Shown: positions 13,956 to 57,782 of the stretch, piece after piece
Layout: each line of letters starts with the position of its first letter
Position numbering within the stretch: the stretch's first letter is position 1
The notes under the pieces: model-generated
Told to the model about the DNA's origin: nothing
Database searches by the model: none
The model's input: only the letters and a program-made list of their open reading frames with translations
Position numbers and translations under genes: made by a program
DNA from: Promethearchaeota archaeon
GTDB lineage: Archaea; Asgardarchaeota; Lokiarchaeia; Sigyniarchaeales; SOKP01
Length of the DNA: 59,554 nt
Direction: 5' to 3'
Assembly (NCBI GenBank): GCA_019894885.1
Contig: JAGXNP010000002.1
Coordinates: 1 to 59,554, forward strand

Positions 13956-14558
13956 TTATGAAGTGAATGAATGCTTTTTTTTAATTGCTTTCAATTCAGT
14001 AATTAACCAACATAATTCTTCGTATGTAGAAGAAGAATTTAAGATTTCTTGAGTTTTTTTCTCTATATCCTTCTTTGAAGTGATTTTTGGATACTTTAAT
14101 AAATTAAGCTGCAATTGGGCTAATATACTACATAATTCTTTATACGGTTTTTTTTCTTGAGAAAGCTTATGTGCTGCAATTGTGATTTCTCCCTCTAAAT
14201 CGGGATCTATTCCTGCTTCAATAAGCTCTACAGTCTCTTCATATTGTATCTCTAATTCTGGTCTTCTTTCTAAATTCTGCCTAGGTTTTATTCCTTTTTT
14301 TATAGAATTTTTTATAGCTAAGAATGAACCATATTCTTTATTTTGTTTTACTATTTGAATACTAATGGGTATCTCCTTTTTGTTGTTCAATAATTTTGCT
14401 TTATTAATCGACAACTCTTTTCTTTTCTTAGATATACTTGAACCTAACCACAAAAACAATGATTTTGCGTCATCTATTAAATACACTTCATCTTCTTTAA
14501 AATCTGCTTTACTAATTTTCTTAAGACCTCCTCTTACACCGACATTATATACTATCAT
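13956..14558 (-). CDS. Gelsolin/villin-type single-domain protein with helical C-terminal extension
   Basis: Residues ~15-85 (FKEDEVYLIDDAKSLFLWLGSSISKKRKELSINKAKLL...ISIQIVKQNKEYGSFLAIK) follow the gelsolin-repeat consensus (compare gelsolin G1: FFTGDAYVIL...YWLGNECSQDE...VQHREVQGFESATFLGYF). ATG start. Confidence 0.65.
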   Translation of the reverse strand: MIVYNVGVRGGLKKISKADFKEDEVYLIDDAKSLFLWLGSSISKKRKELSINKAKLLNNKKEIPISIQIVKQNKEYGSFLAIKNSIKKGIKPRQNLERRPELEIQYEETVELIEAGIDPDLEGEITIAAHKLSQEKKPYKELCSILAQLQLNLLKYPKITSKKDIEKKTQEILNSSSTYEELCWLITELKAIKKKHSFTS

Positions 14559-15965: not shown

Positions 15966-17441
15966 ATGGGAGCAGTTCAATGGTTATTAAAAAAGATCAC
16001 TAAAGTATTCGGTAGAAACACTACTTCTTTATATTATGTTCTTCTTTATCGTGAAATATTAAAAGAGATAAATGATATTACGAAAGATGAAGAGGATAGT
16101 ATTATTATACTTAGAGAGATCGGGAAGAAAGCTGCTACAGAATCATGTGAACGTCACACCACTGTTTTTAAATGGATGCCTGGGAGCCCAAGAAAAGTAA
16201 TTGAATATTTTGAACTTTTATGGGTTGTTGTTTTTGGAAAGGAATTAGAAGAGGGGGATTTAACTTACGAGGAACTTCCTAAAGAAAGCTCGAAATATAA
16301 CGATTATATTGTTAAGATAAAAAGTTGTCCACTTTGTGCAGGGTATGGGGCAGATGATGAGGATACTTTCAAATTTCAAAAAGTAACCAATAAAAATAGT
16401 GAAGGTCTTGCGTGCGGTTTAACGGGAATGTTAGAAAGTGTTGCTAATTTTATACTTAAAATAAAAAGGAGCGATTATAGAATTAATATTGTAGAGCAGA
16501 AGTGCTTAGCGAAAGGTGATGAGCATCTTCAGTTTATGTGTAAAATCTATGATTCTCTAGACTGGAAAGAGCTAAGTTCCGTTCGAATTCAAGATAAAAT
16601 TAAATCTGGAGTTAAATTTGAAGAGTCTATAGAAGAGGATGTTGTTCAAGAAACAAAGTTAGACATTATTGATAAACTTCAAGAAGTCTTATCTCTTGAT
16701 AAAATTGAGGAATTACTTGATGAACCCTTAGAGGGTATTAAGAGTAAAGTTGCTGAGATCATTGAAGATAAATTAAACATGGAACCCGAACACTTTTTCG
16801 ATTATTTTAGAAATTATGAGGACGATCTATTAAGAATCATTGGCTATCTCGCAGTTCACCTGCTTAATGAATATGGAGGATTAATCGAAAAAACTTTGAA
16901 AAATAGCACATTTGCTAAAATAGCAGGGTACCTTTTTAAACAATTAAGAGAATTTGTTTTATTGTTCATCCCTATTGATGTAATCAACGATTATCATCAA
17001 TTACTAATAAGTTTTCTTGATGGTTTAGCTCCAGCAGAGATGGTCGAGAATGTAAGACAATTCTCGGGTAAGGATGATATTAATTTTCTCTTTGAAGGAG
17101 CCCAAATGGCACTTGAAAATTTAGGAATTGACTTTTCAGAGCTAAAAGATAATGTTTGGGAAGAAATAAGAAAGGAAAGAGAAAACGGTTTACTTTCTTC
17201 GGATCAGTCAATGATGGAAAAAACTGAAGAAAACATCCCAAAAATTATAAAGATTATGCAAGAAATTTTAATGTTGTTAAGCGATATTTTAACGCTTCCA
17301 ATAAGAGTATTAATTTCTGAAAGCCATTATGGCCTTAAAACAGCTATTAACTCTGTAGTATCTGAAGAAGAAGGGTTGTTCGGGAGTATAAAAGATAGAA
17401 TTGATACAATTTTTGACTATGTTCAAGAATTAAAGCAATAA
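15966..17441 (+). CDS. V4R-domain protein (TRAPP Bet3-like) with ~300-aa acidic helical C-terminal extension
   Basis: N-terminal ~200 aa carry VKIKSCPLCAGYG...LACGLTGMLESVANFIL...EQKCLAKGDEHLQFMCKI, a classic V4R signature. The remainder is helical, Glu/Asp/Lys-rich and of no recognised family. Confidence 0.6.
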   Translation: MGAVQWLLKKITKVFGRNTTSLYYVLLYREILKEINDITKDEEDSIIILREIGKKAATESCERHTTVFKWMPGSPRKVIEYFELLWVVVFGKELEEGDLTYEELPKESSKYNDYIVKIKSCPLCAGYGADDEDTFKFQKVTNKNSEGLACGLTGMLESVANFILKIKRSDYRINIVEQKCLAKGDEHLQFMCKIYDSLDWKELSSVRIQDKIKSGVKFEESIEEDVVQETKLDIIDKLQEVLSLDKIEELLDEPLEGIKSKVAEIIEDKLNMEPEHFFDYFRNYEDDLLRIIGYLAVHLLNEYGGLIEKTLKNSTFAKIAGYLFKQLREFVLLFIPIDVINDYHQLLISFLDGLAPAEMVENVRQFSGKDDINFLFEGAQMALENLGIDFSELKDNVWEEIRKERENGLLSSDQSMMEKTEENIPKIIKIMQEILMLLSDILTLPIRVLISESHYGLKTAINSVVSEEEGLFGSIKDRIDTIFDYVQELKQ

Positions 17442-17464: not shown

Positions 17465-17472
17465 TTTTTTTT
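17465..17472 (+). terminator. T8 tract after the V4R operon; an A8 tract at 17443-17450 serves the convergent gene
   Basis: aataAAAAAAAAgagaaattttaaaaTTTTTTTTatg between convergent genes gives an oligo-T on each strand. Confidence 0.35.
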
Positions 17473-18169
17473 ATGTTTTTAATCCTAAATACATCCAGAT
17501 TGCAAAAGTCATCATTACTACTCTTACAAAACCAATAGCAACAGGTAAAGTGAGTATTGAATCTAAAGCTCCACAGACAACAAAAATTATAAATCCTAAC
17601 GCTAAATAAATAAATTTCTTTCTCAATTCTCCAGTTGCCTGCTTGGCTTTTATTAAAAACCCAAAACCTAGAAAAATTAGAGCTGAAAGGAGAAATAAAG
17701 CAACTAGTAGAAAGGTTGGATGTGTTCTAACAAAACTAGCGTCAATTAAGCCCTCACCGGGATTAATAAGTGTCCATGTGAAGGAATCGTTTGTATAGAA
17801 CCATAGAAAGTATTCAAATATAATACCTAATATAATAAATGTTCCAACTAAGATCCATTTTTTTTTAGGTATTAAAAGTTCACCACCAAGATACATTGAA
17901 ACAATTAATACCGGAGCTACCCACATATAACTTAACAACGAATAAAAGTAGATTGGTGTTATGTTGGTTCCTGTAAATGTTACTAAAATTAAATCTATAA
18001 ATGGACCAAGCCATAGAAAGCCAGTAAAAAGCATAGTCAATGCAGCGAATGTTAAGAGTTTTGCTTTTAATTTTATTGATTTATATAGAGATAACAATGC
18101 AAAAATTGTAGCTGATAAAATAATACCTGTAGCAGTTAAGCCATCTAATAATCCTAATGCGTCAACCAT
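17471..18169 (-). CDS. Integral membrane protein (about 7 TM), unknown function
   Basis: 232-aa ORF composed almost entirely of hydrophobic helices. No motif recognised. Confidence 0.55.
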   Translation of the reverse strand: MVDALGLLDGLTATGIILSATIFALLSLYKSIKLKAKLLTFAALTMLFTGFLWLGPFIDLILVTFTGTNITPIYFYSLLSYMWVAPVLIVSMYLGGELLIPKKKWILVGTFIILGIIFEYFLWFYTNDSFTWTLINPGEGLIDASFVRTHPTFLLVALFLLSALIFLGFGFLIKAKQATGELRKKFIYLALGFIIFVVCGALDSILTLPVAIGFVRVVMMTFAIWMYLGLKT

Positions 18170-21503: not shown

Positions 21504-21875
21504 CTAATCTAAAAGTGAAGCAATCCTATTGGAAACGCTCTGGATATTTAGAAAAACCATACCTAAACTAGAATTAGCGCTACAAAGCGTACATAAAATA
21601 GCGTTATCACCTGCTTTAGAGAGAACAATAATTCCATTTAGACCTTCGATAAGGATTCTTTTTAACTCACCCCTATCAAGTTCTTCAACCGCTCGCTCTG
21701 ACACGCTCTGTATAGCTGCTGACATCGCAGAAACTATACCATCATTCACATTACGGCTTAAAACGGAACAAATTGGAAGTCCTTGAACACTAACTATAGC
21801 GGAACCCTCTATATCACTATTTACTGCTGATAATTTTCTTAGTAAATCCGTGAGTTCGCTAATATTCTCAGACAA
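21504..21875 (-). CDS. Roadblock/LC7 (MglB-like) domain protein
   Basis: 123 aa. Typical pattern ...IEGSAIVSVQGLPICS...SAMSAAIQSVSERAVEEL..G.LKRILIEG.NG.IVLSKAG.NAIL. Only a TTG start is available in frame. Confidence 0.75.
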   Translation of the reverse strand: MSENISELTDLLRKLSAVNSDIEGSAIVSVQGLPICSVLSRNVNDGIVSAMSAAIQSVSERAVEELDRGELKRILIEGLNGIIVLSKAGDNAILCTLCSANSSLGMVFLNIQSVSNRIASLLD

Positions 21876-23113: not shown

Positions 23114-24223
23114 ATGAAAAAACTAAATATCTGCCTTATTTCTTTAACTGTATCTCCAGATAGTGTGGATGGCGAAGCAAAAGTCATCAGAGCACTTTTT
23201 GAGTATTTAAAAAAACAGGGACATAGCGTTAAATTAATCACTGGTAAATGGAATAAAGACTTAGGCACTCCAGACATTATTCAATTCGATTTAATCAGAA
23301 AAAGGTTTCTATGGGTGCTTCATTTTTATATTAAAGTCATTAGATACTTAAGAAGAAATAGATTCGATATTGTGCATGCAAATAGCGCAAAGGCTGCCTT
23401 ACCAGTGTTTTTATCCCATCAGAAAAAATTTATTTGTACAATTCACGATTTTACTCCTTTTGAAACACAACTTACAAAAATTCCATTGGAAAAACTTTTG
23501 ATTAAATTTGTTTCAAGGAGAGCCTCTTCGATATTAACTGTATCTAATTTTGTTAAGCAAGAATTCCAGCATTTTCTTCCCAATATTGACAAGAATAAAA
23601 TTAAAACGATTTACAACGGTATTGATGAAAAATACAAACCATATCCTAATGAAGCTCAAAAGTTAAAGGAAAAACTAAATATTCATGGTCCAGTTTTATT
23701 ATATGTTGGGAGAATAACACAATATAAGGGTGTGAAAAGTATAATCGAAGCTTATAGGCTAGTTAAAAGCGAAAATCCTGATATTAAGTTAGTTATTGGT
23801 GGAAAGCCTGATTTTTTAATGAAAAATGAATACAATAATTGGGTTGCTGATTATAAAGATGTTCGTTTTTTAGGTTTTATCCCCGAAAATGATATTCCAT
23901 TCTATTTTTCTATGGGAGACATTTTTATCACATATTCATCTTCATCTGAAGGATTTGGATTAACCTCTTTGGAAGCAATTTCTTGTGGAACTCCTGTTAT
24001 TTGTTCAGCAATTTCGGTATTTAAAGAAATATTAGAGGACCACGCGCTCTTTGTTCCACCTAGAAATCCCCTTAAATTAGCAGAGAAAATTAATATCCTA
24101 CTGCACGATGATGAACTAAAAAATCAATTAGTTATTAATGCTCAAAAATATATCCAAAAATATAGTTGGAATGCTGTAGGCAAAAGATTAGAAAAGGAAT
24201 ACGAAAAATTTATGAACCTCTAA
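23114..24223 (+). CDS. Glycosyltransferase family 4 (GT-B fold)
   Basis: 369 aa. C-terminal EGFGLTSLEAISCGTPVI (E-x7-E region) typical of GT4. Confidence 0.85.
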   Translation: MKKLNICLISLTVSPDSVDGEAKVIRALFEYLKKQGHSVKLITGKWNKDLGTPDIIQFDLIRKRFLWVLHFYIKVIRYLRRNRFDIVHANSAKAALPVFLSHQKKFICTIHDFTPFETQLTKIPLEKLLIKFVSRRASSILTVSNFVKQEFQHFLPNIDKNKIKTIYNGIDEKYKPYPNEAQKLKEKLNIHGPVLLYVGRITQYKGVKSIIEAYRLVKSENPDIKLVIGGKPDFLMKNEYNNWVADYKDVRFLGFIPENDIPFYFSMGDIFITYSSSSEGFGLTSLEAISCGTPVICSAISVFKEILEDHALFVPPRNPLKLAEKINILLHDDELKNQLVINAQKYIQKYSWNAVGKRLEKEYEKFMNL

Positions 24224-25329
24224 GAGCCCTCCAAGAGGTTCTTCTTAACAGTTTTATAACAGATATCATTTGGATTCTCAAAATTCAATATTTTTTCTCG
24301 AAAGTTATTGTTAAACCTATCAGATTTCGGTTTAGTTGAGAGGATTCCCAAAGATTTTTTTACGATTTCGCCAATCCCTTTTATATGTTGTAAAGGGAAG
24401 CCATTGTTTATTAAAAAACGCTCTTGGGGTGCTGTTTCTCCTGGAAAAAATTCTATACTTGGTACATTTAATAGACTTGATTCACGTACTATTGTTCCAC
24501 CGCCACTGATTACTAAACTGCTGTAAAAACACAGATCAACCATATTCGGCATGTATCTTGTTATTTTTACATTGGAATATCTTTTGTAATTCTCCAATTT
24601 CTCGTTAAGAAATAATTCTTGCTTTTTAGTTCTTACAATGATCAGATATTTATGATGTGGAAATTCTTTAAAGATAGGAGGAAAAAACTTGCTAATTAAT
24701 GATTCTTCTGGTTTAAGAATATCAATAAAATAGCTTGCAAATGAGGGTTCACTTCGTATAACTACATACTCTCCCTTCTTTAAATTATATTCATCAAGTA
24801 TGGAAGGATTTGGTTGATACTCCGATAACCAAGCTATCTCGTCTATACCATTAAATCTTATCAATTTATTTGGATTTGCGTGGAGGTCTATGTACAGTTG
24901 CTCGGGAACACAAGTAGGAGTAATTATATTATCTAAATAGGGAAATATTAATTTACATACTGGAACATTACGAGGTTCATCGTTATAACCTATCGAAGGG
25001 ATATTCAAACCATACGAGATTCTTGTACCTTCAACAGATGAAAATGTAATGAAATAATCTGGCTTAAAATTTACTACTTTAGGGTATAATTCCGTCAAAC
25101 GGTTGATATATGATGATAATTTATTTTCTAAAGTAGCGCCCCCATGCTTCCCTACTTTCTCATAAATTACTTCTAAATCGTCTAGAATTTGAAAGGTTGA
25201 GTCATAATCTCTTGCGGTAACAAGGATATCAGCTCCATCATTTCTAAATTTTTCTATAAGAGATTTAAACATTATACTTGTTTTTGGTTCTTCAATATCA
25301 ATCCAAATTTTCTTTCCTGATAAACTCAT
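24220..25329 (-). CDS. DUF354-family protein (GT-B/epimerase-like, glycan biosynthesis context)
   Basis: 369 aa. N-terminal KIWIDIEEPKTSIMFKSLI...GADILVTARDYD matches my memory of DUF354. Converges on the GT4 gene with a 4-nt overlap. Confidence 0.65.
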   Translation of the reverse strand: MSLSGKKIWIDIEEPKTSIMFKSLIEKFRNDGADILVTARDYDSTFQILDDLEVIYEKVGKHGGATLENKLSSYINRLTELYPKVVNFKPDYFITFSSVEGTRISYGLNIPSIGYNDEPRNVPVCKLIFPYLDNIITPTCVPEQLYIDLHANPNKLIRFNGIDEIAWLSEYQPNPSILDEYNLKKGEYVVIRSEPSFASYFIDILKPEESLISKFFPPIFKEFPHHKYLIIVRTKKQELFLNEKLENYKRYSNVKITRYMPNMVDLCFYSSLVISGGGTIVRESSLLNVPSIEFFPGETAPQERFLINNGFPLQHIKGIGEIVKKSLGILSTKPKSDRFNNNFREKILNFENPNDICYKTVKKNLLEGS

Positions 25330-25389
25330 GATTAAATTAATTCTTTCAGTTGTTATTTTAAAATTTGAAAAAGTAGCATATATTGTGAT

Positions 25390-26145
25390 TTAAATCCAAT
25401 CTGCAGGTTTTTTTTTTAATAACTTAGCAGGGTTTCCGACAACTATATCTCTTTCATTAGTATTTTTTGTAACTACAGCGCCTGCTCCAACAATTGTTCC
25501 CCTTTTTAAAGTAATTCCCGGTAAAATAACTGAGTTTGCACCGAGTGATACTTCGTCTTCAATTGTTGGACCAATTAAATCAAAATCCTTCTGCATCATG
25601 TATTTATCATTCGTTAATTTACTGAAAGGACCCATAAATACGTTATTTCCAATTCTACAATATAACGGAATATATACTCCCGTTTGGATACTAACTTTAT
25701 TACCTATTACTACATTACCGTCAATAACCGTGTTAGTACCTATAACTGTATTATGCCCTATTGATGTTTTTTCTCTTATCATAACATTATGTCCTGTTTG
25801 ACAATTGCTCCCAATTAAGACTTCAGAGTAAATTATACTACCTGCCCTTATGGTACAATCTGTTCCAATAGAAACTAATGGACTCTCGTAATCCGTTCCA
25901 TTCCTCTGACTCTTTACAACTTCTAATAATTCCGCTCGTTGGCGGTGCCCAATAATACAATTTTCCCCTATATAAGTCCCCGATTGAATTAAAGCGTTTC
26001 CGTAAATATTAACACCCTTAGAAATATAAACTCCGCTTTCAATTGTAACTCCTTTTCCTATTGTTGAAAATGTATCAATAAATGCATTTTTATGCACGAT
26101 AGCATTCTTATGAATAAAAGAATTATTTGTATCTTCTAGTTTCAC
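25390..26145 (-). CDS. Left-handed beta-helix (hexapeptide-repeat) acyl/acetyltransferase
   Basis: 251 aa of repeated [LIV]-G-x4 hexapeptides (IGKGVTIESGVYISKGVNIYGNALIQSGTYIGENCIIG...). Confidence 0.8.
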   Translation of the reverse strand: MKLEDTNNSFIHKNAIVHKNAFIDTFSTIGKGVTIESGVYISKGVNIYGNALIQSGTYIGENCIIGHRQRAELLEVVKSQRNGTDYESPLVSIGTDCTIRAGSIIYSEVLIGSNCQTGHNVMIREKTSIGHNTVIGTNTVIDGNVVIGNKVSIQTGVYIPLYCRIGNNVFMGPFSKLTNDKYMMQKDFDLIGPTIEDEVSLGANSVILPGITLKRGTIVGAGAVVTKNTNERDIVVGNPAKLLKKKPADWI

Positions 26146-26543: not shown

Positions 26544-26759
26544 TTACGAGGGGGTAAACAACCAATTAAAAATACCTAACCAAGCAAAAATGACTATCAA
26601 TATTAAAGCAACAGCAAAAATTACAGTTGTTATCGGGCTAATTTTAATTCCAATTGAACTATCCTCAAAAAACCTCATTAAACCAGCGCCTCCTAAAGGC
26701 ATTGGTGCGTTTCCGCTTCTCCTTTTTTTGCGTTTTGATTGGCTGCGTTGAGACGACAT
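26544..26759 (-). CDS. Protein translocase subunit Sec61beta (archaeal SecG)
   Basis: 71 aa. Basic N-terminus, conserved GGAGLMRFFED motif, then a single C-terminal TM (tail-anchor layout). Confidence 0.75.
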   Translation of the reverse strand: MSSQRSQSKRKKRRSGNAPMPLGGAGLMRFFEDSSIGIKISPITTVIFAVALILIVIFAWLGIFNWLFTPS

Positions 26760-26911
26760 TTATAATTTTCTCAATTATTTTTATAATATAAATAAATTTA
26801 AAACAACACAAATAATAAGTTTTATCTCGAATCATATAAATAAATTTAATAAATTTTTATTAATGGTATTAATTATTGTTAGTTAATTCGAGTTTACAAA
26901 GGAATTTAATT

Positions 26912-28774
26912 ATGAGAAGAAAAAGTTTTTTCATTATATTTATTGGATTTTTATCTTTTATAATCGTATTCTCAGCTATTCAAGATGATTTTTCATATAA
27001 TTATCAACATGATTTATTAGTTGAAGACCCTCAACAATCAAGGACTTTAGAAGGAGCAGATAACCTTTTAGTGGTGAATATGGTAAGAACCACTAATTTA
27101 AGTTCCTATGGTTTAGTAAATATAAAAGATAGGCTAACAATCTTAAATAATAATAACAATCCGATTAATTCAATTTTATTTGGATTAAAGGTTGAACATT
27201 CAAATGATTTAATTTATTTTAACGCTTTTGGTGAAGCAAAGAACACACTTTTAATCGAAAGATCCCACGAAATAATGGACATTTACGAAATGATAACTAT
27301 TTATTTTGATATGCCTTTACTACCATCGCAAAAAATTACTTTTACTGTTTTGCATTCATATACGAATTTAATATCTTATCAGTTTGCTTTTATTGAAGAA
27401 GATATCACTCAACTTTTAGTATTTAAAGGATCATTGTTTCCTCTTTTACCCTATAAGAGCGAAGGAAACATTAAATCAAATTATCTGTTACCAGAAGGGT
27501 CAACGTTATATTCTCATACACAAATTGGGCCAATGGGAGTTCCGTTGGAGGGAACTAATGTATTATACGATTTAGAAGCAAATTTAGAAATTAACTATTT
27601 AGAGCCCTTTTTACTAAACTTAGATGAGAATAACGAAACAACTATTTCTGTAGACGATAGGTTATCATCAAAATTAGAAATAGAAAAGATAAACAAGGAT
27701 ATTTACATATCTCCCTGGGGTATTATTAAAAATATTGAAGAAATTACGATTGAAAATGCTGGAATTGTTGAAGTTGCTCTATTATCAATGAAAATTCCAA
27801 TCGATGCAATAAATGTAAAAGTTTATGACGATCTGGGAGAGGTCTTAGGAGTATCCCTTATAGATTCTATTGATGATGTTTCAACAAAAATTGTTTCTAT
27901 TCAATTATACCAGAATAGAGTTTCGCTGACACCGGCATCAAAATTTAAGTTTTTTCTAGAATATTATCTACCCCCTGAAAAATATATATCCTACAATTGG
28001 CTACAACAATCCATTTCAATAAACTTACTTACGACAAAATATGAATATTTAATATACGAACAAACTACCAATGTATTTATCGAAGGTTGTGCTAGTGTTG
28101 ACTATATGTCTTCACTACCAGAAGCTTTGCATAACTCAGGAAATTCCAAAGTTTTAGTATACAGCACAGAAAACATAAGTCCAATAGTAAAGAAAAATGT
28201 ACTCCTTACTTTTACTATTGATTTATTTGAAATATTTCTTAGACCTGTTGTGTTCGTTATGATCATTGCCTTATTGTCATCTATTTTCGTTCTAGCAATT
28301 AAAACTCTAAAAAGAGAGGAACAAGTATCGATCTTCAAAAAAGAATTCATCCCAACAAGTGAAATTAGAGAATTTTGTTCATTGTACGAAGAGAGCAATG
28401 CATTAGTGTTAGAAATTAGAAAAGCAGAAAGTGAGACAAAACGCAAGAAATTAGCAAAAAAGACTTATAAAAATTTATTAAGCAAAAACACGTCAAAAAT
28501 TGACCAGATTAAAGAAGAAATAAACCCTTTTAAGAAAATATTGATGGAGACTAACGATACATTCAATAATATTGTAAAAAGACTTGATGTGTTAGATGCC
28601 GAAAGAATTAGTATTTCGGATAGCTTAAATCTCTTGGAGACTCGATATAAAAGAGGAAAATTACCTTCTAAAGCAGCCTACCAAAAATTATCAATTGATT
28701 TCTTCAATAGACGAAAAAAATTAGATAGAACGATCGATAAGTATATTCAACAGCTAAGAAGTTATTTATTGTAA
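26912..28774 (+). CDS. Ribophorin I (OST1)-like protein
   Basis: ATG at 26912 is preferred to the TTG at 26876. Signal anchor, ~430-aa lumenal-type domain, one TM ([18 protein letters not shown]), ~150-aa charged coiled tail, the same layout as RPN1/Ost1. Local matches to human RPN1: [22 protein letters not shown] vs [23 protein letters not shown], and [12 protein letters not shown] vs VSHWGNIAVEE. Confidence 0.65.
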   Translation: [620 protein letters not shown]

Positions 28775-28797: not shown

Positions 28798-29421
28798 ATG
28801 AGACCGTGGTTGTGCGACATTTTAGCTTGTCCGATTGATAAATTTTTTCCTCTAGAGTTGATAATCTTTTCTTTTGAAACAAACGAAAATATTTTTAAAG
28901 AAATATTAGAAGCGTATGATAAGAAAGACTTAATTAGTATTAAAAAGGAAAATGTTATTGAAATTGAGCAAAAAAATGAAGAATTACTTCTGAAAGACGA
29001 AATCGTGATTGAAAAAAGTAAACTTGGTATTTATATAAATAAAATAATTTCTAGTGTTAAAGAAGTAGATAGTATACGCGATAAATCTTCATTTGAGCTA
29101 AGTAAACGATGTATTCACATTATACAAAATGATATAAAACAAAAAATAAAAGCATTCTCAAACAATGTGATAAATAAACAAATTGATACTATTTTGCCAG
29201 AATTATATTTATTAAACAAATTCAAAACTGAAATTGAAATTGAAACGGGTATATTGTTCTGTTCTCAGTGTAAGAGATGGTTCCCAATCATCGAAACTAT
29301 TCCGCAGATGTTACCAGATGAATATAGAGATGAAGAAGCAGATATTCTATTTCTGAAAACCAATAAAAATTTATTAGATAACACATTTTTTAAACAAAAT
29401 TTAAAACCATTTAATCTATAA
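28798..29421 (+). CDS. Trm112-like methyltransferase-activator protein with large inserted domain
   Basis: N-terminal WLCDILACPIDKFFPLEL and C-terminal ILFCSQCKRWFPIIETIPQMLPDE form the split Trm112 zinc-knuckle/beta signature. A ~120-aa helical insert lies between them. GGTGA SD upstream. Confidence 0.55.
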   Translation: MRPWLCDILACPIDKFFPLELIIFSFETNENIFKEILEAYDKKDLISIKKENVIEIEQKNEELLLKDEIVIEKSKLGIYINKIISSVKEVDSIRDKSSFELSKRCIHIIQNDIKQKIKAFSNNVINKQIDTILPELYLLNKFKTEIEIETGILFCSQCKRWFPIIETIPQMLPDEYRDEEADILFLKTNKNLLDNTFFKQNLKPFNL

Positions 29422-29609: not shown

Positions 29610-30956
29610 ATGATTCGGCTATCCTCTATGAATTGGGGTATTTTAGAAACAATTTACCTAGTTATATCTTTCATTGTTGGATTTGTTATAACATTAGTAA
29701 TTATCCCTTATATCATAAGAATCATGAAACGGAAAGGATATACAGGGATAGATATACATAAGACATTAAAAACTGAAGTTCCCGAATCTGGTGGGATTTC
29801 TATTATCATTGGTATATCAATTACTGCTATTTTACTGACTATATTTTTCCCAGATTTCTTTAATGAAATCTTGATTTTTGTTTTAACAGTAGTAATTTCT
29901 GGTTTTATTGGTTATATAGATGACAGAATCAAATTAAGATCAAGATACAAGCTGTTGTTAACAATTTTAACAGGAATAGTGATATTTTTAGCAAACTCTG
30001 TTGGTTTTATACAAATCGAATCTCCTACAATTCCCTTTTTGGGAAAATTAAGATTAAATGTTTTATATCCAATTCTCGTTCCTTTGATCGTTGCTGTTTT
30101 TGCTAATACAGTCAATATGTTAGAAGGATACAATGGTGAAGGCTCAGGGACATCGATTATTGCTTTATTTTCCTTGATGATTTGCTCTATTATATGGGAC
30201 TCCGCAGAAGGTTTATTATTTACAGTTATATCTTTAGCAATATTAATACCATTTTTCTTATATAACAAGTTTCCAGCTAAAATTTTTCCAGGGGATGTTG
30301 GAACACTAAGTATTGGAGCAATTTTTGCTTCTATCGCTCTGATTGGTTCTCTTGAATCAGCAGTTTTTTGTGCATTACTTATTCATATATTTAATAGCTT
30401 TTATGTCATTTATTCTGTAAAGGGGTTTTTCGAAAGTAGTGAAATTTCAGACAATAGAAGCGACATTTTATTATTAGAAAACGATTTTATAAAGGCTTCA
30501 GATCTAAAAAGCGCTGCTTTGACATTACCTCGGTTAATATTAGCTAAAGGACCAATGAAAGAACCAGATTTAGTCAAAAACTTCTACATAATTACGATAA
30601 TTTGTGGATTTTTTGCTATTTTAACCACGCTATTGATGGTTTCAACAACAACTCTTATCACAATAGCGATAATATGTGGTTTTTTTGGATTAATTACGGT
30701 AATTTTGTTGTATAAGTATCCTAGAATAAGGGGGATAGTAGTTCTCATGTTAATTTTAATCTTAGTAGGGTATTTATATCTTGTTGCTATTGATTTATTT
30801 ATCATCCCCATAGATTTTATAGATATTAATATTTTTGGTTTAGTAATACCTACTAATATTCTAATATCCTTAATTATAGTAATACCTGGACTTTTACTGT
30901 GGTATTATATCACTATTAAATACTTTTGGTCTGAAATTAATAAAATGAAGAAATAA
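29610..30956 (+). CDS. UDP-GlcNAc:dolichyl-phosphate GlcNAc-1-phosphate transferase (ALG7/AglH, MraY-WecA superfamily) with extra C-terminal TM region
   Basis: 448 aa, polytopic. GYIDDRIKL, NTVNMLEGYNGEGSG and FPGDVGTLSIGA motifs of polyprenyl-P sugar-1-P transferases. The last ~130 aa add extra TM helices. Confidence 0.75.
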   Translation: MIRLSSMNWGILETIYLVISFIVGFVITLVIIPYIIRIMKRKGYTGIDIHKTLKTEVPESGGISIIIGISITAILLTIFFPDFFNEILIFVLTVVISGFIGYIDDRIKLRSRYKLLLTILTGIVIFLANSVGFIQIESPTIPFLGKLRLNVLYPILVPLIVAVFANTVNMLEGYNGEGSGTSIIALFSLMICSIIWDSAEGLLFTVISLAILIPFFLYNKFPAKIFPGDVGTLSIGAIFASIALIGSLESAVFCALLIHIFNSFYVIYSVKGFFESSEISDNRSDILLLENDFIKASDLKSAALTLPRLILAKGPMKEPDLVKNFYIITIICGFFAILTTLLMVSTTTLITIAIICGFFGLITVILLYKYPRIRGIVVLMLILILVGYLYLVAIDLFIIPIDFIDINIFGLVIPTNILISLIIVIPGLLLWYYITIKYFWSEINKMKK

Positions 30957-31070
30957 ATTTGACTAAAATAAAGAGGTTTAACCTAGATTTTTTCCCAAAA
31001 ATGATATATGAATTTTTATCATTAAGTAAATTGATCATATTCAAAAATTATTAAATTAAAGGAATGAAGG

Positions 31071-33614
31071 ATGAAAAAAATCGCTCGCTTTGGTTTATTT
31101 ATTATCTTTCTATTATCTACCATTTCTTTTTCGCTAATTTCAATTTCTCTTCTAGATGCTTGGATTGTGATATTAGGTGATTGGATTTTTTATGCCCTTT
31201 TCATTTTTTACTTGTTATCCGTTGAAGAATTATATAGATGGGCTAAAAGTAGTAAAAGAAGCGAATTGAGCGATTTTGTTGCTCTTCTTTTCTTTTTTTT
31301 TCTCATTTTATTTATTTCAAAAGATGTCTTCACTTCAATTATGGGAGCATTTTCAATATACCTATGGTTTGGTATAGCAGAATTGAAAGATTATCCGGTT
31401 TTGAATAAACTTTTAATAATTTCTTTGGTAACTTATAATGTAATTTTTGTCTCGGGAATTATATCGAGTATTATTAGTAACCCAATTGTAATAAACACAG
31501 CTTTTTCCTTTTCATTTTGGATAATTTTAGGATTAGGATTTATTTTATTTGGTCGAAAATATATTGTTATTTGGAGATTTATGTCACCTGAATATTTAAC
31601 ACTATTTCTTTATATTATTGCTTGGTTAGCTATTGTATTTATTAACCAATATACTCCTCTTAATTTTATCTCACAGAAAGCTTTGCTTTTTAACACATTC
31701 TCCGTCGGGGAACTTTTTTTGAATGTGTATACTATATTAATGGCGATAAATTGGATTATTTATTTCATTTCTGGACCAATTTTAGATTTTATGCTTGGAA
31801 TTAAACCACTTAAGGATAAAAGACTATTAGATTTAATTGAAGAAGTAAAATCAGACCTTGGAATAAAAGGAAAAGTAAAAGTTGGGATAGGGAATTATCC
31901 AATAATAAATGCTATGGCATATGGTTCGTTTTTTGATAAACGAATTGCCCTTATCGCAGAAAATTATAAATTAGTACCCGAAGATGAAATAAAAGGTATA
32001 ATTGCTCATGAATTAGCACATACCAAGGGAAAGCACACTTTAATCTTGACTTTTTTAACTACTGGCGACTTAATCTTTAGAATGCTATTTGGTATTCCTG
32101 CTACATATTACGATTATACATTTGGTAATCCTCAGCTTCCCTTTATATTTTATATTTTGTTAAACATACTTATATATATAATCTTGTTTATGTTTGTTAG
32201 AATATTAGAAGGGAAAGCCGACCAAAAAACAAAAAAAATTGGATACGCTAAAGAACTCGTAAAAGCCCTGTATAATTTGGAAAGCTTCTATGCTACTGGA
32301 CGTGAATTTGGATTGAACATGATGCTTTTAAGCGAAGAAAAAATTACACAAAATAATGAAATTTTAAATTACCTAGATACAGCAGATTATATTAACAAAT
32401 CAATAATTAAACCAAAAAGGAGCTCTCTGATTAGCAATATCATAAACTCTCATCCACTCACATATCATAGAATTGCTGCTATCCTAGATGATACATTAAA
32501 ACCAACAAAAGAGATGCTCCTCCCTTTTTTGTGCTTAAAAAAATCAAATCAAAAACATTATGCTAAACTGTTTGAAAAGGCACGCGTTAAATTTAAAGTT
32601 ATAGCTAGCGAAAAATTTAAAGAATATTTCAATATCAGTGATATTTCTGCTTATATGCAAAATTTAAACAGAATCGAACTCTATAAACTGGAACTCGAAA
32701 AGGATTTTATCTTTAAACATAAGATTACAGATGAAATTATTGTAGGTAAATTAGAAAGTGTAAGATTTAATGATGATGTATGTGAAATCGACGAATACAT
32801 CGTGAAAGAATTCAAAAACAATAATAAAATCCATCTAAATTCTTCAGAATATTCTAAGTCTCAAATTTCACTAAGGGACGATTATTTTTTGGAAAAAGAA
32901 GGCATCTTAAATCTTATAGATATAGATATAAGTTCGGATCAAATGAAAGCTGATTATGTTTTTTTGGATAAAGATGGTCATAAGATTTTTAAACGGTTAA
33001 AGAAAACGAAATTACCTAATTCTATATCGACAATTAAAATGTTTACTGATAAAGATATTTTTTTCAATACAAAAGGAGAAACAATAATACTTAGATGTTT
33101 GAAAGTAGAAATTTCACAGAATTTTAAAAATTCTAAATTATATTTTGAAATGCTCCCTCAAAATGATGGAGATAAAACATTTCATTATAAACTTCAGGAT
33201 TTGATAATTAAGCCCAAAAATACCTATATTATGTTAAACAGAAATAAAACAGTTCGAAAATCAGAATTAGAAATTTTTGATTGGTTGATAGAAAAACAGC
33301 TTAGAACTTATATTTATTTGAAAAAACCAGTCAATAACTTAGAAATAGGCTATATTCAAGATATAAAATTAGATATTGAAAATTTAAAAAAGAAACCGGA
33401 TCAGGGAAAAAGTGAGGTATCTAATTACATAACCATCAAAAATATATTCAATAAAAACATAAAAATACCTTATAAATCGTTAGAAGCCTTATCCTTCGAA
33501 TACATTACAGGTAACATTCAAAAGAAGTCAGAGACGAGCATTTTTAGTAAATTAGGTTATATTATATTGAAAAAATTCAAACCCGAAAAGATTTTTTATC
33601 TCAACAAAGTTTAA
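31071..33614 (+). CDS. M48-family (HtpX/Ste24-like) zinc metallopeptidase with multi-TM N-terminus and ~350-aa soluble C-terminal region
   Basis: 847 aa. HELAHTKGKH (HExxH) preceded by NAMAYG, as in M48. About 7 TM before and 2 after the active site. Lys/Asn-rich C-terminal region of unknown fold. Confidence 0.7.
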   Translation: MKKIARFGLFIIFLLSTISFSLISISLLDAWIVILGDWIFYALFIFYLLSVEELYRWAKSSKRSELSDFVALLFFFFLILFISKDVFTSIMGAFSIYLWFGIAELKDYPVLNKLLIISLVTYNVIFVSGIISSIISNPIVINTAFSFSFWIILGLGFILFGRKYIVIWRFMSPEYLTLFLYIIAWLAIVFINQYTPLNFISQKALLFNTFSVGELFLNVYTILMAINWIIYFISGPILDFMLGIKPLKDKRLLDLIEEVKSDLGIKGKVKVGIGNYPIINAMAYGSFFDKRIALIAENYKLVPEDEIKGIIAHELAHTKGKHTLILTFLTTGDLIFRMLFGIPATYYDYTFGNPQLPFIFYILLNILIYIILFMFVRILEGKADQKTKKIGYAKELVKALYNLESFYATGREFGLNMMLLSEEKITQNNEILNYLDTADYINKSIIKPKRSSLISNIINSHPLTYHRIAAILDDTLKPTKEMLLPFLCLKKSNQKHYAKLFEKARVKFKVIASEKFKEYFNISDISAYMQNLNRIELYKLELEKDFIFKHKITDEIIVGKLESVRFNDDVCEIDEYIVKEFKNNNKIHLNSSEYSKSQISLRDDYFLEKEGILNLIDIDISSDQMKADYVFLDKDGHKIFKRLKKTKLPNSISTIKMFTDKDIFFNTKGETIILRCLKVEISQNFKNSKLYFEMLPQNDGDKTFHYKLQDLIIKPKNTYIMLNRNKTVRKSELEIFDWLIEKQLRTYIYLKKPVNNLEIGYIQDIKLDIENLKKKPDQGKSEVSNYITIKNIFNKNIKIPYKSLEALSFEYITGNIQKKSETSIFSKLGYIILKKFKPEKIFYLNKV

Positions 33615-33642
33615 TTGGCATGCTTCTCTTTAAAATCTAATA

Positions 33643-34572
33643 ATGACCAGTAAAATTAGAAGCATTTCCCACCTTCTGCGAGTAAGACAATATTATAAAA
33701 ATGTTTTAATCTTCGTTGGTGTGTTTTTTAGTAGGAAAATTTTTGATACTACGCTTTTTTTCCCACTAATATTAGGATTTATTTTGCTATGCTGCGCTTC
33801 TTCTTTCAACTATATTATTAACGACATCGTAGATGTAGAACACGATAAAAAGCATCAAGAAAAAATGAATAAAAAACCCTTAGCGTCTGGAGAACTACCA
33901 ATGTATTTCGCAGCGTTACTTTTAATAGTGATTGTAGGTATTATAGTTTTCTCTGTTATATTTTTAATTCCAAATATTAGTTTTATAACTATGTTAATTC
34001 TCATCATCTTAACGGGGCAACTTTATAATTATTTCTTTAAAAATTATGCATTTATCGATATATTGGTCTTATCCACGGGGTATCTATGGAGAGCATTATC
34101 TGGAGTCCTTATAATAAACGAATACATCTCCGCTTGGTTATTTTTAGCAATATTCGAAATCGCTATGTTTTTAAGCATTGCTAAAAGAAAGGGTGATCTG
34201 TTATATCTTGGGAAGGATAAAGCAGTTGAGCATAAAAGAGTTTACGATCAATACTCTCTAAAACTTCTAGAACAATTTTATGTTCTAATTGCGGGATCTT
34301 TATTTATGACTTATTCTCTTTATCTCATTTTAAAATTTAACCTTTTCGAACCTACTATAAATCTACAAGAATATATAGTAATTTTTACGATTCCTATTTC
34401 TCTCTATATTATTATGCGGTTTATGTATTTAACTTCCTCTAAACCTGAATTAGCAAGGAGAACCGAAAAAGCCTTTTTAGATAAAGGCATAATTATCTCA
34501 GGGATTTTACTTTTTTTGATCCTTTTTTCCTCATTTTATTTTGATAAAATAATAACTTTTTTTATTGGTTAG
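33643..34572 (+). CDS. UbiA-superfamily prenyltransferase, decaprenyl-phosphate phosphoribosyltransferase (DPPR synthase)-like
   Basis: 309 aa, 8-9 TM. YIINDIVDVEHDKKHQEKMNKKPLASGEL resembles the NDxxDxxxDxxHxxKxxRPxASG motif of the DPPR-synthase subfamily. Confidence 0.7.
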   Translation: MTSKIRSISHLLRVRQYYKNVLIFVGVFFSRKIFDTTLFFPLILGFILLCCASSFNYIINDIVDVEHDKKHQEKMNKKPLASGELPMYFAALLLIVIVGIIVFSVIFLIPNISFITMLILIILTGQLYNYFFKNYAFIDILVLSTGYLWRALSGVLIINEYISAWLFLAIFEIAMFLSIAKRKGDLLYLGKDKAVEHKRVYDQYSLKLLEQFYVLIAGSLFMTYSLYLILKFNLFEPTINLQEYIVIFTIPISLYIIMRFMYLTSSKPELARRTEKAFLDKGIIISGILLFLILFSSFYFDKIITFFIG

Positions 34573-38526: not shown

Positions 38527-39429
38527 ATGAGCTCCAAACGCTTCTTCTTTAATCCTCCAACAAAATTAAAAGTTTTTAAAAATGATCTCGCTCCATTAGG
38601 ATTTTTTTTTGATTTAATTCCAACAAAAAATTTTAAGATACCTATAATGCCCGTTCCGATGAGAATTGATAAACTTACAAATCGTCAACCAACCTTATTT
38701 ATCTTACCTGATTTTAACTCTCTTAAAAATATATTTCAAAAATATCATTTATTTATTAATTTTAAGCAATTTTTTTTAATTGGATTAACTAATTTAATCT
38801 CTTATGCTAAAGTTAAATATAAGGAAATAACGAAAAGAAACCTTAAAGATGAAATCATTATCCAATGGTTTGAAAAGTCAAAAAACATCATCACAGAGAT
38901 TTATAGCTTAACCGGAACATTTACATTTATAATTTCTGAATTTTTAAAAACACTTTATTTTATTAATACTGAAAAGACTAAGGATGAAAATAGTAATACA
39001 CTCAAGCATTTTATCCAATACTGTGATACAATGATTAATCATTGTGAAGAAAAAATAGAAAATAATACATTTATAATAAAAAAGGGGGATACAGAAGAAG
39101 AAGTAAAATTATACAAAGAAAAAAATAATAAATGTTATCCTGAAATTGTAAGTGTTGATGTGGACAATCTATTATTAAATAAAAAAGAAAAAAGGAGTTT
39201 TATTCCATATCTTATCTATGATGATTTATTTGATTGTTTTTCGTACAATAAAAAAAAATTATTTGAAAATCCAATAAATGATTTATCGATAAATTACTGG
39301 TTTGAGAATCGAATAATTAATAAAGATTCTACCATTGATAACTTTAAAATTGAAGAGTTATATCTTAATCAAATTAATTTAAGCTTTTATTCGATATCAA
39401 GCGATTGCTATGAAAAAAATAAAAATTGA
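38527..39429 (+). CDS. Hypothetical protein (Lys/Asn/Ile/Phe-rich ORFan) inserted in the Opp operon
   Basis: 300-aa ORF on the operon strand in extremely AT-rich DNA. No motif recognised. Confidence 0.4.
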   Translation: MSSKRFFFNPPTKLKVFKNDLAPLGFFFDLIPTKNFKIPIMPVPMRIDKLTNRQPTLFILPDFNSLKNIFQKYHLFINFKQFFLIGLTNLISYAKVKYKEITKRNLKDEIIIQWFEKSKNIITEIYSLTGTFTFIISEFLKTLYFINTEKTKDENSNTLKHFIQYCDTMINHCEEKIENNTFIIKKGDTEEEVKLYKEKNNKCYPEIVSVDVDNLLLNKKEKRSFIPYLIYDDLFDCFSYNKKKLFENPINDLSINYWFENRIINKDSTIDNFKIEELYLNQINLSFYSISSDCYEKNKN

Positions 39430-39868
39430 ATTAGCTAGACAAGGAACTTTTATTGTAACCATAATATTAATCCATTTCGTCTTTTTTGGTTATATTGCCA
39501 ATGTATATGAAAAAACTATTGGAATAAATATTATATTCTTAAATAAAATTTTATTTAGCCCTGTTTCATATCTGTCAACGCTTATTCTTATAGCGATTGT
39601 GTTTTTTCTCGTTTTTAGAGAAGCATTTTTTGAATATGGGCTGAGAAATAGCATAATGCTCGTACCGATTATGATAGGTATGTCATGGGTATGGTCATGG
39701 ATTATGAATGGTTTTAATCTAATAATAATCCCTCTGTTTTTTATAAGTTTAGATGGATATCTGACGATAATTTCCATTTTTGGTATTAATTTGGCAACAG
39801 CAATATTAGCATCTATCCTTAAACAAAGATATAAAGAATATAAAAAAAAAGTGAAGGAAATTATTTAA
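39410..39868 (+). CDS. Hypothetical small membrane protein (4 TM)
   Basis: 152-aa hydrophobic ORF overlapping the previous ORF by 20 nt. No motif recognised. Confidence 0.4.
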   Translation: MKKIKIELARQGTFIVTIILIHFVFFGYIANVYEKTIGINIIFLNKILFSPVSYLSTLILIAIVFFLVFREAFFEYGLRNSIMLVPIMIGMSWVWSWIMNGFNLIIIPLFFISLDGYLTIISIFGINLATAILASILKQRYKEYKKKVKEII

Positions 39869-57254: not shown

Positions 57255-57782
57255 TTACACATTAAATAATTTATTACCTAGTTTAATCGATATCATTGCC
57301 TGTAATGTAAAAAAGGAAGCCAATATTAGAAGAATACCTACAACTAAATATCTAACTGCTACACTCTTATTATATACGAATTTAGATGCTTGGTATAATA
57401 AAATAAAGCCAATAGAACACATAAAAATAAAAATAGAAGCAACTACACCTTCAATTATGAATGACTCGTTTATATCAGGATATAGAAATCGGGGACTACC
57501 ATCTTGATAAGAACCCAAAGCAGGAACTTCTCTAAATACTAGATAAACTATTCCAGTCTGCAAAAGGAACAGAATAATGTAAACTCCTATTACAGCTATT
57601 GATTTACCTGGAAGAGGAATTCCCATTCTGGGTTTTTTTATATCTGGAAACAAAATTTTTGGTTTTCTGAAAGTGTTGCCAAAAATCCATGGTGTTCTAC
57701 TTTTAATTTTTTCAAATACAGTCTCCGAGCCTAATACTTCATCTTTAGCTGCTTTTACTTTATTTCTTCTTTCCTCTTGCAT
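57255..57782 (-). CDS. Small 3-TM membrane protein, possible OST3/OST6 (TUSC3/MagT1) membrane-domain homologue
   Basis: 175 aa. Charged N-terminus, 3 TM. FLYPDINESFIIEGVVASIFIFMCSIGFILL resembles TUSC3 [31 protein letters not shown], with similar spacing of the flanking TMs. No thioredoxin domain. Confidence 0.35.
   Translation of the reverse strand: MQEERRNKVKAAKDEVLGSETVFEKIKSRTPWIFGNTFRKPKILFPDIKKPRMGIPLPGKSIAVIGVYIILFLLQTGIVYLVFREVPALGSYQDGSPRFLYPDINESFIIEGVVASIFIFMCSIGFILLYQASKFVYNKSVAVRYLVVGILLILASFFTLQAMISIKLGNKLFNV

Follow-up and report, generated by a model that had tools for sequence, protein, structure and literature searches.

The locus considered here raises the question of whether an archaeon encodes ribophorin I (Ost1), an accessory subunit of the eukaryotic oligosaccharyltransferase (OST), and what such a protein would do in an archaeal cell membrane. 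The window, a stretch of 59,554 nucleotides of Promethearchaeota DNA, carries the OST1 gene at positions 26912..28774 of the + strand, stop codon included. Translation from ATG 26912 gives a protein of 620 aa, while starting at an in-frame TTG (26876) would lengthen it to 632 aa. Since homologues of OST1 are 618–626 aa in length and begin with MRKK, ATG 26912 is favoured as the start. The host is an Asgard archaeon; the relatives all come from Promethearchaeota MAGs, and the proteins that are 91% identical to the window OST1 have been deposited as "hypothetical protein". The same 59.5-kb window also contains Roadblock/LC7 and gelsolin-domain genes.

A preliminary description of the locus had outlined the product as an N-terminal hydrophobic segment, an ectodomain, a single transmembrane (TM) helix, and a charged, coiled tail. 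This layout stood with the exception of the tail, which is a compact four-helix bundle and not a coiled coil. Hydropathy analysis identified only two hydrophobic segments, aa 1–27 and 430–468. The first includes a signal sequence (aa 1–23; 26912..26980, + strand) made up of MRRK and a hydrophobic core, with a hydropathy maximum of 2.67 and a helix at residues 2–23 in the AlphaFold (AF2) model. The second includes the TM helix (aa 438–467; 28223..28312, + strand; hydropathy maximum 2.85), which is also helical in the AF2 model and aligns with the TM segment of human RPN1. From hydropathy and AF2, the ectodomain is approximately 415 aa in length, β-rich from residue ~50 to ~436, and the tail is 153 aa. 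An N-terminal signal and one TM helix after the ectodomain predict a type-I topology.

Sequence comparisons place the protein in the ribophorin I family. The Pfam model PF04597 (Ribophorin_I) was matched at 54.7 bits (gathering score 25; E = 1.2e-14), with aa 55–284 of the single sequence aligned to profile positions 4–228 of 437, and precomputed matches to PF04597 are present in most close homologues. Using HMMER, a profile of the OST1 family (alignment A1) matched human RPN1 (6S7O_E) with E = 3.2e-7, residues 108–463 being collinear with 93–455. With hhalign, residues 55–449 were aligned to 34–443 of human RPN1 at a probability of 93.4%, the RPN1 sequence used being in agreement with the 6S7O_E chain at residues 93–455. 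Both methods follow the relationship collinearly through the two lumenal domains and the TM segment. Two alignments to RPN1 that had been made by eye were reproduced by software: hhalign pairs residues 55–72 of the window OST1 with 34–50 of human RPN1, and the second motif is paired with VSHWGNIAVEEN of human RPN1 by HMMER and hhalign. The similarity to ribophorin I lies far beyond chance (Pfam E = 1.2e-14, Foldseek E = 4e-30). A search of NCBIfam found no model for OST1, and OST1 proteins of the type found in MK-D1 (Candidatus Prometheoarchaeum syntrophicum) can escape Pfam; this accounts for the conflict between a 2024 paper that described MK-D1 as lacking Ost1 and another in which the protein was crystallised.

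The ectodomain was modelled by AF2 with high confidence (pLDDT ~90 over aa 50–440) and, in this model, is composed of two tandem β-sandwich domains with the Ost1/RPN1 fold that are predicted to face outward. Domain 1 (aa ~51–250; 27062..27661, + strand) has strands with a pLDDT of ~90, overlaps the Pfam match, and is aligned by hhalign from RPN1 residue 34 onward. Domain 2 (aa ~251–437; 27662..28222, + strand) is aligned by HMMER to RPN1 residues ~230–440 and contains an SPWG motif (W269, G270) that occupies invariant columns in alignment A1. When the AF2 model was searched against the PDB with Foldseek, the eight best matches were all RPN1/Ost1 chains from human and yeast OST cryo-EM structures, namely 8b6l_O (E = 4e-30), 6s7o_E, 8pn9_E, 6s7t_E, 6ezn_A, 7oci_A, 8agb_E, and 6c26_1 (E = 5.6e-20). 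The next fold class followed at E = 3e-7, approximately 13 orders of magnitude behind. From the Pfam score, the RPN1 profile match, and the Foldseek result, the product of 26912..28774 is almost certainly an OST1/ribophorin I orthologue, which supports the homology proposed in the preliminary description. Neither of the two outcomes named there as refuting it, the lack of a significant Ribophorin_I profile match and an ectodomain fold unlike that of RPN1/Ost1, was obtained.

The tail (aa 466–620) consists of 37% K/R/E/D as compared to 20% in the ectodomain. In the full-length AF2 model, it was presented as a single 98-residue helix with a pLDDT below 50 at aa 462–519, and this part of the model was discarded. 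When aa 468–620 (28313..28771, + strand) were modelled alone with a more diverse alignment, AF2 produced four helices with a pLDDT of 90.4. The tail matches the crystallised cytoplasmic domain of MK-D1 OST1 (8WHN; WP_147663064.1; Carilo et al., J Biol Chem 2024, PMC11417166), both in sequence (phmmer E = 1.8e-35, 44–45% identity) and in fold (Foldseek TM 0.83/0.89, RMSD 1.9 Å). Against the human RPN1 bundle, the tail model alone gave a weak match (8b6l_O, E = 0.38, TMq 0.52; Foldseek); at the sequence level, nothing in common with the RPN1 tail was detected, and hhalign aligned the two proteins only as far as the TM segment. Within OST1, conservation is highest in the tail, with a mean identity of 84% versus 54–60% in the ectodomain and 66 invariant residues of 138. 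Even among members less than 60% identical overall, the tail retains 80% identity compared to 44–50% for the ectodomain, and it is kept in most of 457 representative clusters. Such a strong constraint fits a partner that evolves slowly, such as the ribosome, and by analogy with MK-D1 it is reasonably probable that the tail binds ribosomes.

MK-D1 OST1 is among the closest known systems and has the same layout, length class (607 versus 620 aa), and archaeal class. The two are diverged: a MK-D1-type representative (P0147) shares only ~32% overall identity with the window OST1, and the tail motifs REFCSLYE and IQQLRSYLL of the window subclade are absent from MK-D1 OST1. The MK-D1 tail, but not the ectodomain, pulled down ribosomes (PMC11417166). 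Human and not archaeal ribosomes were used in that pull-down, and binding to them was shown for the human domain as well (PMC11417166). The MK-D1 signal peptide conferred ER targeting, and HeLa cells cleaved it (PMC11417166). With a crystal structure, a pull-down, and signal cleavage in hand, an earlier statement that no prokaryotic homologue has been characterised biochemically does not hold, nor does the restriction of such homologues to Asgard archaea, as they have been reported from TACK archaea too (PMC11417166). Asgard Ost1 was first reported in 2017 and has been termed "typically present" in Lokiarchaeia. The identification of this gene as an Asgard OST1 is correct but not new, and it adds no new kind of component.

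Human RPN1 (6S7O_E, 8B6L_O), a subunit of OST-A and OST-B, has the same signal, two β-sandwich domains, TM helix, and cytosolic helical bundle. At 607 aa it is near the window OST1 in length, and the Foldseek match (E = 4e-30) extends over ~620 aligned columns. Sequence identity is 15–22%, with the common motifs RT.(N/D)LSS and S(P/H)WG. RPN1 resides in the ER membrane within a nine-subunit complex, whereas the window OST1 would sit in the cell membrane. Its partners RPN2, OST48, and DAD1 have been reported among archaea in Heimdallarchaeia only (PMC10307638). Yeast Ost1p (6EZN_A, 6C26_1, 7OCI_A, 8AGB_E) has the same ectodomain fold and TM helix (Foldseek E = 4e-23 to 6e-20, TM-score on target 0.63–0.65). 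The RPN1 bundle touches eL28, H25, and H19/20 of the ribosome; in contrast, yeast Ost1p has no such cytosolic four-helix bundle, nor is yeast OST coupled to the ribosome (PMC6761772). In its possession of this bundle, the window OST1 resembles the metazoan form and not yeast Ost1p.

The gene neighbourhood provides further context. Upstream of OST1, in divergent orientation, is a gene for Sec61β (26544..26759, − strand), a tail-anchored protein of 71 aa with a Pfam Sec61_beta score of 45.5 bits and an NCBIfam Sec61beta score of 49.6 bits, slightly under the 55-bit cutoff. Of 80 related loci, 78 have the two genes side by side in divergent orientation, one has them side by side on the same strand, and one lacks the flank. 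Context for MK-D1-type proteins (P0147) comes from four proteins only, on short contigs, two of which have the Sec61β linkage. A Trm112-like gene (28798..29421, + strand) begins 23 nt downstream of OST1 and is directly downstream in 78/80 loci. Its product of 207 aa is a split zinc-ribbon protein (Cys 6/11/155/158) with a Pfam Trm112p score of 30.9 bits and 47 bits to NCBIfam Trm112_arch, which is under the cutoff of 77. Next is a Glycos_transf_4 (GT4) gene (29610..30956, + strand; PF00953, 105 bits), a polyprenyl-phosphate GlcNAc-1-P transferase homologue that is AglH/Alg7-like by family. In 68/80 loci it lies no more than 4 kb from OST1, and other glycosyltransferase genes are nearby. The divergent Sec61β–OST1 pair and the linked Trm112-like gene were not mentioned in the literature that could be searched.

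Between Sec61β and OST1 is a 152-nt AT-rich spacer (26760..26911) that presumably holds the promoters and 5′ UTRs of both genes. In 79 loci the spacer has conserved blocks and a length of ~140–165 nt. Its excess identity over shuffles was 0.19, the same as that of a control spacer between the Trm112-like and GT4 genes, so that only ordinary promoter/UTR conservation is indicated. A non-coding RNA or riboswitch-like element was rejected given this equal conservation and the absence of a match in an Rfam search of the spacer. A 7-codon uORF was also rejected since its ATG is not conserved.

DC2/OSTC couples mammalian OST-A to Sec61. A second OST-subunit homologue lies in the window 28.5 kb from OST1, a DC2/OSTC-like protein of 175 aa with three TM segments (57255..57782, − strand). 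It matches Pfam OST3_OST6 with 33.4 bits (gathering score 27) over the membrane part of the profile only, has three hydrophobic segments, and matches human OSTC (6S7O_H) with a phmmer E-value of 5.4e-9. From these sequence comparisons, this lineage has an "Ost3/6" homologue that resembles DC2/OSTC. In docking, the Ost3/DC2 position packs on Sec61 α/β/γ (PMC7226087). No gene for the catalytic subunit AglB/STT3 was found in the window, and the agl genes of MK-D1 are scattered and not clustered with aglB (PMC11284389); thus, gene context does not tie OST1 directly to the catalytic subunit.

Taken as a lokiarchaeial (Promethearchaeia) ribophorin I/Ost1, the protein is likely a type-I cell-membrane protein that is linked to OST and tethers ribosomes. 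By homology, it would accompany the oligosaccharyltransferase AglB/STT3 as a partner without catalytic function, with its TM helix and ectodomain beside the catalytic subunit and its cytoplasmic bundle on the large ribosomal subunit, like the RPN1 bundle in mammalian OST-A. The glycosylation site would then be kept beside the Sec61 channel, where N-X-S/T sites could be scanned as nascent secreted and membrane proteins emerge. A complex with AglB is favoured, if narrowly, by analogy to the eukaryotic enzyme. The Sec61β neighbour, the GlcNAc-1-P-transferase-family and other glycosyltransferase genes, and the DC2/OSTC-like protein fit a Sec61-coupled, OST-A-like arrangement. A fuller model, which can be offered only tentatively, is that Lokiarchaeia perform OST-A-like, translocon-docked, co-translational N-glycosylation in which the OST1 bundle holds the ribosome and a thioredoxin-less DC2/OSTC-like subunit, not a true Ost3/6, docks Sec61. 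Sec61β and OST1 would be co-expressed from their shared divergent promoter, and the co-transcribed Trm112-like protein would be a further cytoplasmic partner.

Other explanations may be considered at the level of the protein and of the gene order. The single-sequence Pfam match is confined to the first half of the model, β-sandwich folds are common, and M1 aminopeptidase N-domains match at 1e-7 (Foldseek), as might be expected if an unrelated β-sandwich cell-surface protein, an adhesin or S-layer-like, had matched Pfam by chance. However, the collinear profile alignment across both domains and the TM segment, the lead of at least 13 orders of magnitude held by the eight RPN1/Ost1 chains, and the match of the tail to a solved OST1 domain (8WHN) leave this explanation with a negligible probability; it is effectively refuted by the profile, hhalign, Foldseek, and tail results. 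The Sec61β–OST1–Trm112-like order could instead be without functional meaning, inherited within one class with OST1 expression uncoordinated with the translocon, and this is a considerable, if doubtful, possibility. Approximately ten genes around OST1 keep their order across the same loci, and the shared spacer is conserved no more than the control. The linkage is also missing in a distant OST1 clade of 80 loci, where neighbour HMMs gave no matches, even at E = 10; because the positive control on the first clade worked and the neighbours at one locus of the distant clade (L106) are unrelated, this absence is real. Nevertheless, where flanks are rearranged (L003, L026–L033, L165, L166), the Sec61β/OST1/Trm112 core remains joined while GT4, M48, and DUF354 move, and the Sec61β linkage is still present at OST1 identities of 41.5% and 31%.

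A different objection accepts the homology. OST1 could be a true ribophorin I that is not an OST subunit. Its main role would be that of a ribosome receptor or an accessory to the translocon, holding translating ribosomes at Sec61 in the cell membrane, and association with STT3 would be a later eukaryotic gain. The bundle is conserved far above the ectodomain, the conserved neighbour is a translocon subunit and not AglB, and the MK-D1 tail binds ribosomes (PMC11417166). MK-D1 also has agl genes that are not clustered with aglB and few glycosylated proteins, with glycoproteomics revealing one heavily glycosylated protein only (PMC11284389). Yet the ectodomain, which in eukaryotes contacts the OST core, has kept its entire fold in a high-confidence model, GlcNAc-1-P-transferase-family and other glycosyltransferase genes belong to the conserved neighbourhood, and a DC2/Ost3-family protein is in the window, with other OST subunits reported across Asgard (PMC10307638). 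A receptor or accessory role without OST function is unlikely, and the two roles are not mutually exclusive.

Asgard ribophorin I/Ost1 is one line of evidence for the inheritance of the eukaryotic ER translocon–glycosylation machinery from the archaeal ancestor. The modest value added by this locus is one of context, namely the divergent Sec61β–OST1 pair, the linked Trm112-like gene, and the DC2/OSTC-like homologue. If a lokiarchaeial OST-A-like machine were to prove true, the OST-A arrangement of metazoans would be the ancestral state, and that of yeast, with neither the tail nor DC2, would be derived.

The OST1 gene occupies the forward strand from an ATG at 26912 to a stop codon ending at 28774 and encodes a protein of 620 aa, in agreement with the preliminary description. 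An in-frame TTG at 26876 provides an alternative start that adds 12 residues; the ATG is preferred since homologues are 618–626 aa in length and start with MRKK. The G+C content of the window is ~30% throughout. A hydropathy analysis identified two hydrophobic segments only, one at the amino terminus (aa 1–27) and the other at aa 430–468. The amino acids K, R, E and D make up 37% of the C-terminal tail (aa 466–620) versus 20% of the ectodomain. The AlphaFold2 model (mean pLDDT = 78.9, ~90 over aa 50–440) presents two beta-sandwich domains in tandem followed by a transmembrane (TM) helix.

A search with the Pfam model Ribophorin_I (PF04597), the check proposed in the preliminary description, matched OST1 with 54.7 bits (gathering score 25, E = 1.2e-14), aa 55–284 corresponding to profile positions 4–228. 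A profile made from 29 OST1 homologues (A1) identified human ribophorin I (RPN1) in the PDB (6S7O_E, E = 3.2e-7) with an alignment that is collinear from residue 108 up to the TM helix at 463. By hhalign, OST1 and human RPN1 were aligned with 93% probability (55–449 versus 34–443); residues 93–455 of the RPN1 sequence used agree with the 6S7O_E chain. These alignments reproduce exactly the two motif pairings with RPN1 that had previously been made by eye. When the OST1 model was searched against the PDB with Foldseek, the best eight matches were all RPN1/Ost1 chains belonging to OST structures of human or yeast (8b6l_O at 4e-30, then 6s7o_E, 8pn9_E, 6s7t_E, 6ezn_A, 7oci_A, 8agb_E, and 6c26_1 at 5.6e-20). 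The next-ranked fold was that of the M1 aminopeptidase N-domain, at only 3e-7. From the Pfam, RPN1 profile and Foldseek comparisons, there is very little doubt that the protein is a member of the OST1/ribophorin I family, and its original identification as ribophorin I was right.

The cytoplasmic tail (aa 469–620) matched PDB entry 8WHN, a "Ribophorin 1 superfamily protein", with 44% identity (E = 1.8e-35). This entry is the OST1 cytoplasmic domain of the cultured Lokiarchaeon P. syntrophicum MK-D1 and folds as a four-helix bundle that shares its topology with the human RPN1 tail (PMC11417166). Since the full-length model was poor over the tail, aa 468–620 were modelled separately. The resulting model (pLDDT = 90.4) has four helices of ~30 residues each and superimposes on 8WHN with TM scores of 0.83/0.89 and an RMSD of 1.9 Å; the Foldseek match to a human RPN1 chain was weak (rank 4, E = 0.38). 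The tail is the most constrained region of OST1. It averages 84% identity in A1, versus 54–60% for the ectodomain, 66 of 138 positions are invariant, and the identity is still 80% among members that are less than 60% identical overall. An exhaustive profile search of 1.84 billion representative proteins identified 457 clusters (E ≤ 1e-3), the majority being 560–620 aa in length and matching the profile through positions 616–620; the tail is therefore family-wide in archaea.

Upstream of OST1 and on the opposite strand are genes for Sec61beta (26544–26759), a MazG-like protein, a NeuD/PglB-type hexapeptide (sugar) acetyltransferase and DUF354, preceded by a forward-strand GT4-family glycosyltransferase (23114–24223). 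A 207-aa Trm112-like protein is encoded 23 nt after the OST1 stop codon (28798–29421, forward strand). Its zinc ribbon is split, with Cys 6/11 and 155/158 on either side of an insert of ~130 aa, and its score is under the NCBIfam Trm112_arch cutoff. Further downstream (29610–34572, forward strand) are genes for a Glycos_transf_4 transferase of the AglH/Alg7 family, for an M48 peptidase of 847 aa whose C-terminal extension is long, and for a UbiA-family prenyl/phosphoribosyl transferase. The conserved block around OST1 (23114–26145 and 29610–34572) is rich in glycosylation and lipid-carrier genes. No AglB/STT3 gene was found within the window. Several sizeable window ORFs (152–491 aa) gave no match to Pfam at E ≤ 1e-3 (15966–17441, 1166–2599, 38527–39868 and 10938–11795, forward; 17471–18169, reverse).

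Linkage was counted over 80 species-representative loci with 40–91% OST1 identity. Sec61beta adjoins OST1 in 79, the 80th having no upstream DNA; the pair is divergent in 78 loci and on the same strand in one (L075). The Trm112-like gene lies directly downstream in 78 of the 80, both exceptions being truncated contigs, and the Glycos_transf_4 gene is found within 4 kb in 68. The Sec61beta–OST1 pair is kept at two further loci (L165 and L166) with 31% and 41.5% OST1 identity, and it outlasts local rearrangements that shift the outer genes. The pair is absent from a distant OST1 clade (~20% identity; 80 metagenomic loci, L085–L164), where an HMM search for the neighbours, which worked in a positive control, detected nothing. 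The Asgard translocon literature searched makes no mention of the adjacency.

The AT-rich spacer between Sec61beta and OST1 (26760–26911, 152 nt) is near-invariant among loci with 56–66% OST1 identity, and conserved blocks and length (~140–165 nt) reach all 79 loci. There was no Rfam match. Since a control spacer, that between the Trm112-like and Glycos_transf_4 genes, had an equal excess of identity over shuffled sequence (0.19), this is probably ordinary promoter/5' UTR conservation.

A 175-aa protein (57255–57782, reverse strand) matched Pfam OST3_OST6 (33.4 bits, GA 27) over the membrane part of the model only. A phmmer search of the PDB identified human OSTC/DC2 (6S7O_H, E = 5.4e-9, 48–170 versus 19–145 of 149) and no Ost3, Ost6, TUSC3 or MAGT1 chain at E ≤ 10. 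Three hydrophobic segments are present with no thioredoxin domain. From these matches, the sequence of the Lokiarchaeial "Ost3/6" is that of a protein with DC2 architecture. In the literature searched, the Asgard protein is named "Ost3/6" and no link to DC2 is made. In mammals, DC2 docks OST-A on Sec61 (PMC5674889). In docking models, the Ost3/DC2 position packs on Sec61 alpha, beta and gamma (PMC7226087).

Close OST1 relatives all come from Promethearchaeota MAGs, and the same tail motifs occur in 95 species-level genomes. Roadblock/LC7 and gelsolin-domain proteins are typical Asgard signature genes; the window encodes one of each on the reverse strand (21504–21875, 56 bits; gelsolin repeat, 13956–14558, 27.5 bits). 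The closest record (DATKTW010000090.1; OST1 91% identical, whole neighbourhood 86–97%) was deposited under the actinobacterial name "Candidatus Nanopelagicaceae bacterium"; it is almost certainly an Asgard bin that was mislabelled or contaminated. In two representative proteins of ~980 aa from outside the window (P0223 and P0227), an amino-terminal FKBP peptidyl-prolyl isomerase domain is joined, along with a bacterial Ig-like domain, to part of an OST1-like protein, namely its second beta-sandwich, TM and cytoplasmic bundle. Such a fusion would represent a folding catalyst tethered to a ribophorin scaffold.

According to PMC10307638, Asgard archaea were already reported in 2017 to have Ost1/ribophorin I and Ost3, and Ost1 is "typically present" in Lokiarchaeia genomes (PMC11284389). 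The preliminary description considered prokaryotic homologues to have been reported from Asgard archaea only and to be biochemically uncharacterised. Both statements are outdated: TACK archaea also have OST1 homologues, and the crystallised MK-D1 cytoplasmic domain pulled down human ribosomes while the ectodomain did not (PMC11417166). In HeLa cells, the MK-D1 signal peptide directs to the ER and is cleaved (PMC11417166). Ost1 was nevertheless called absent from MK-D1 (PMC11284389), a contradiction that arises from annotation gaps: an MK-D1-type OST1 (P0147) has no Pfam match at E ≤ 0.01, NCBIfam has no OST1 model, and every named NCBI homologue is a "hypothetical protein".

The mammalian RPN1 bundle touches eL28 and rRNA H25 and H19/20, whereas yeast Ost1p is without this cytosolic bundle (PMC6761772). 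By analogy with its homologues, the archaeal tail probably tethers the ribosome by binding the large subunit and, with slightly less assurance, the TM helix and ectodomain may pair with AglB. Placed in this way next to the exit of Sec61, the transferase would scan co-translationally, in this case at the cell membrane and not the ER. OST1 could instead be chiefly a ribosome/translocon receptor that has not yet acquired coupling to AglB, as the stronger conservation of the tail over the ectodomain and the neighbouring Sec61beta might suggest; however, the ectodomain fold is retained and glycosylation genes are close by, making this rather unlikely. Receptor and OST-subunit roles can also coexist. 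The window OST1 belongs to the Asgard eukaryotic-signature proteins that were known before; the Sec61beta–OST1–Trm112 linkage, the DC2-like "Ost3/6" and the annotation gaps are small additions for specialists.
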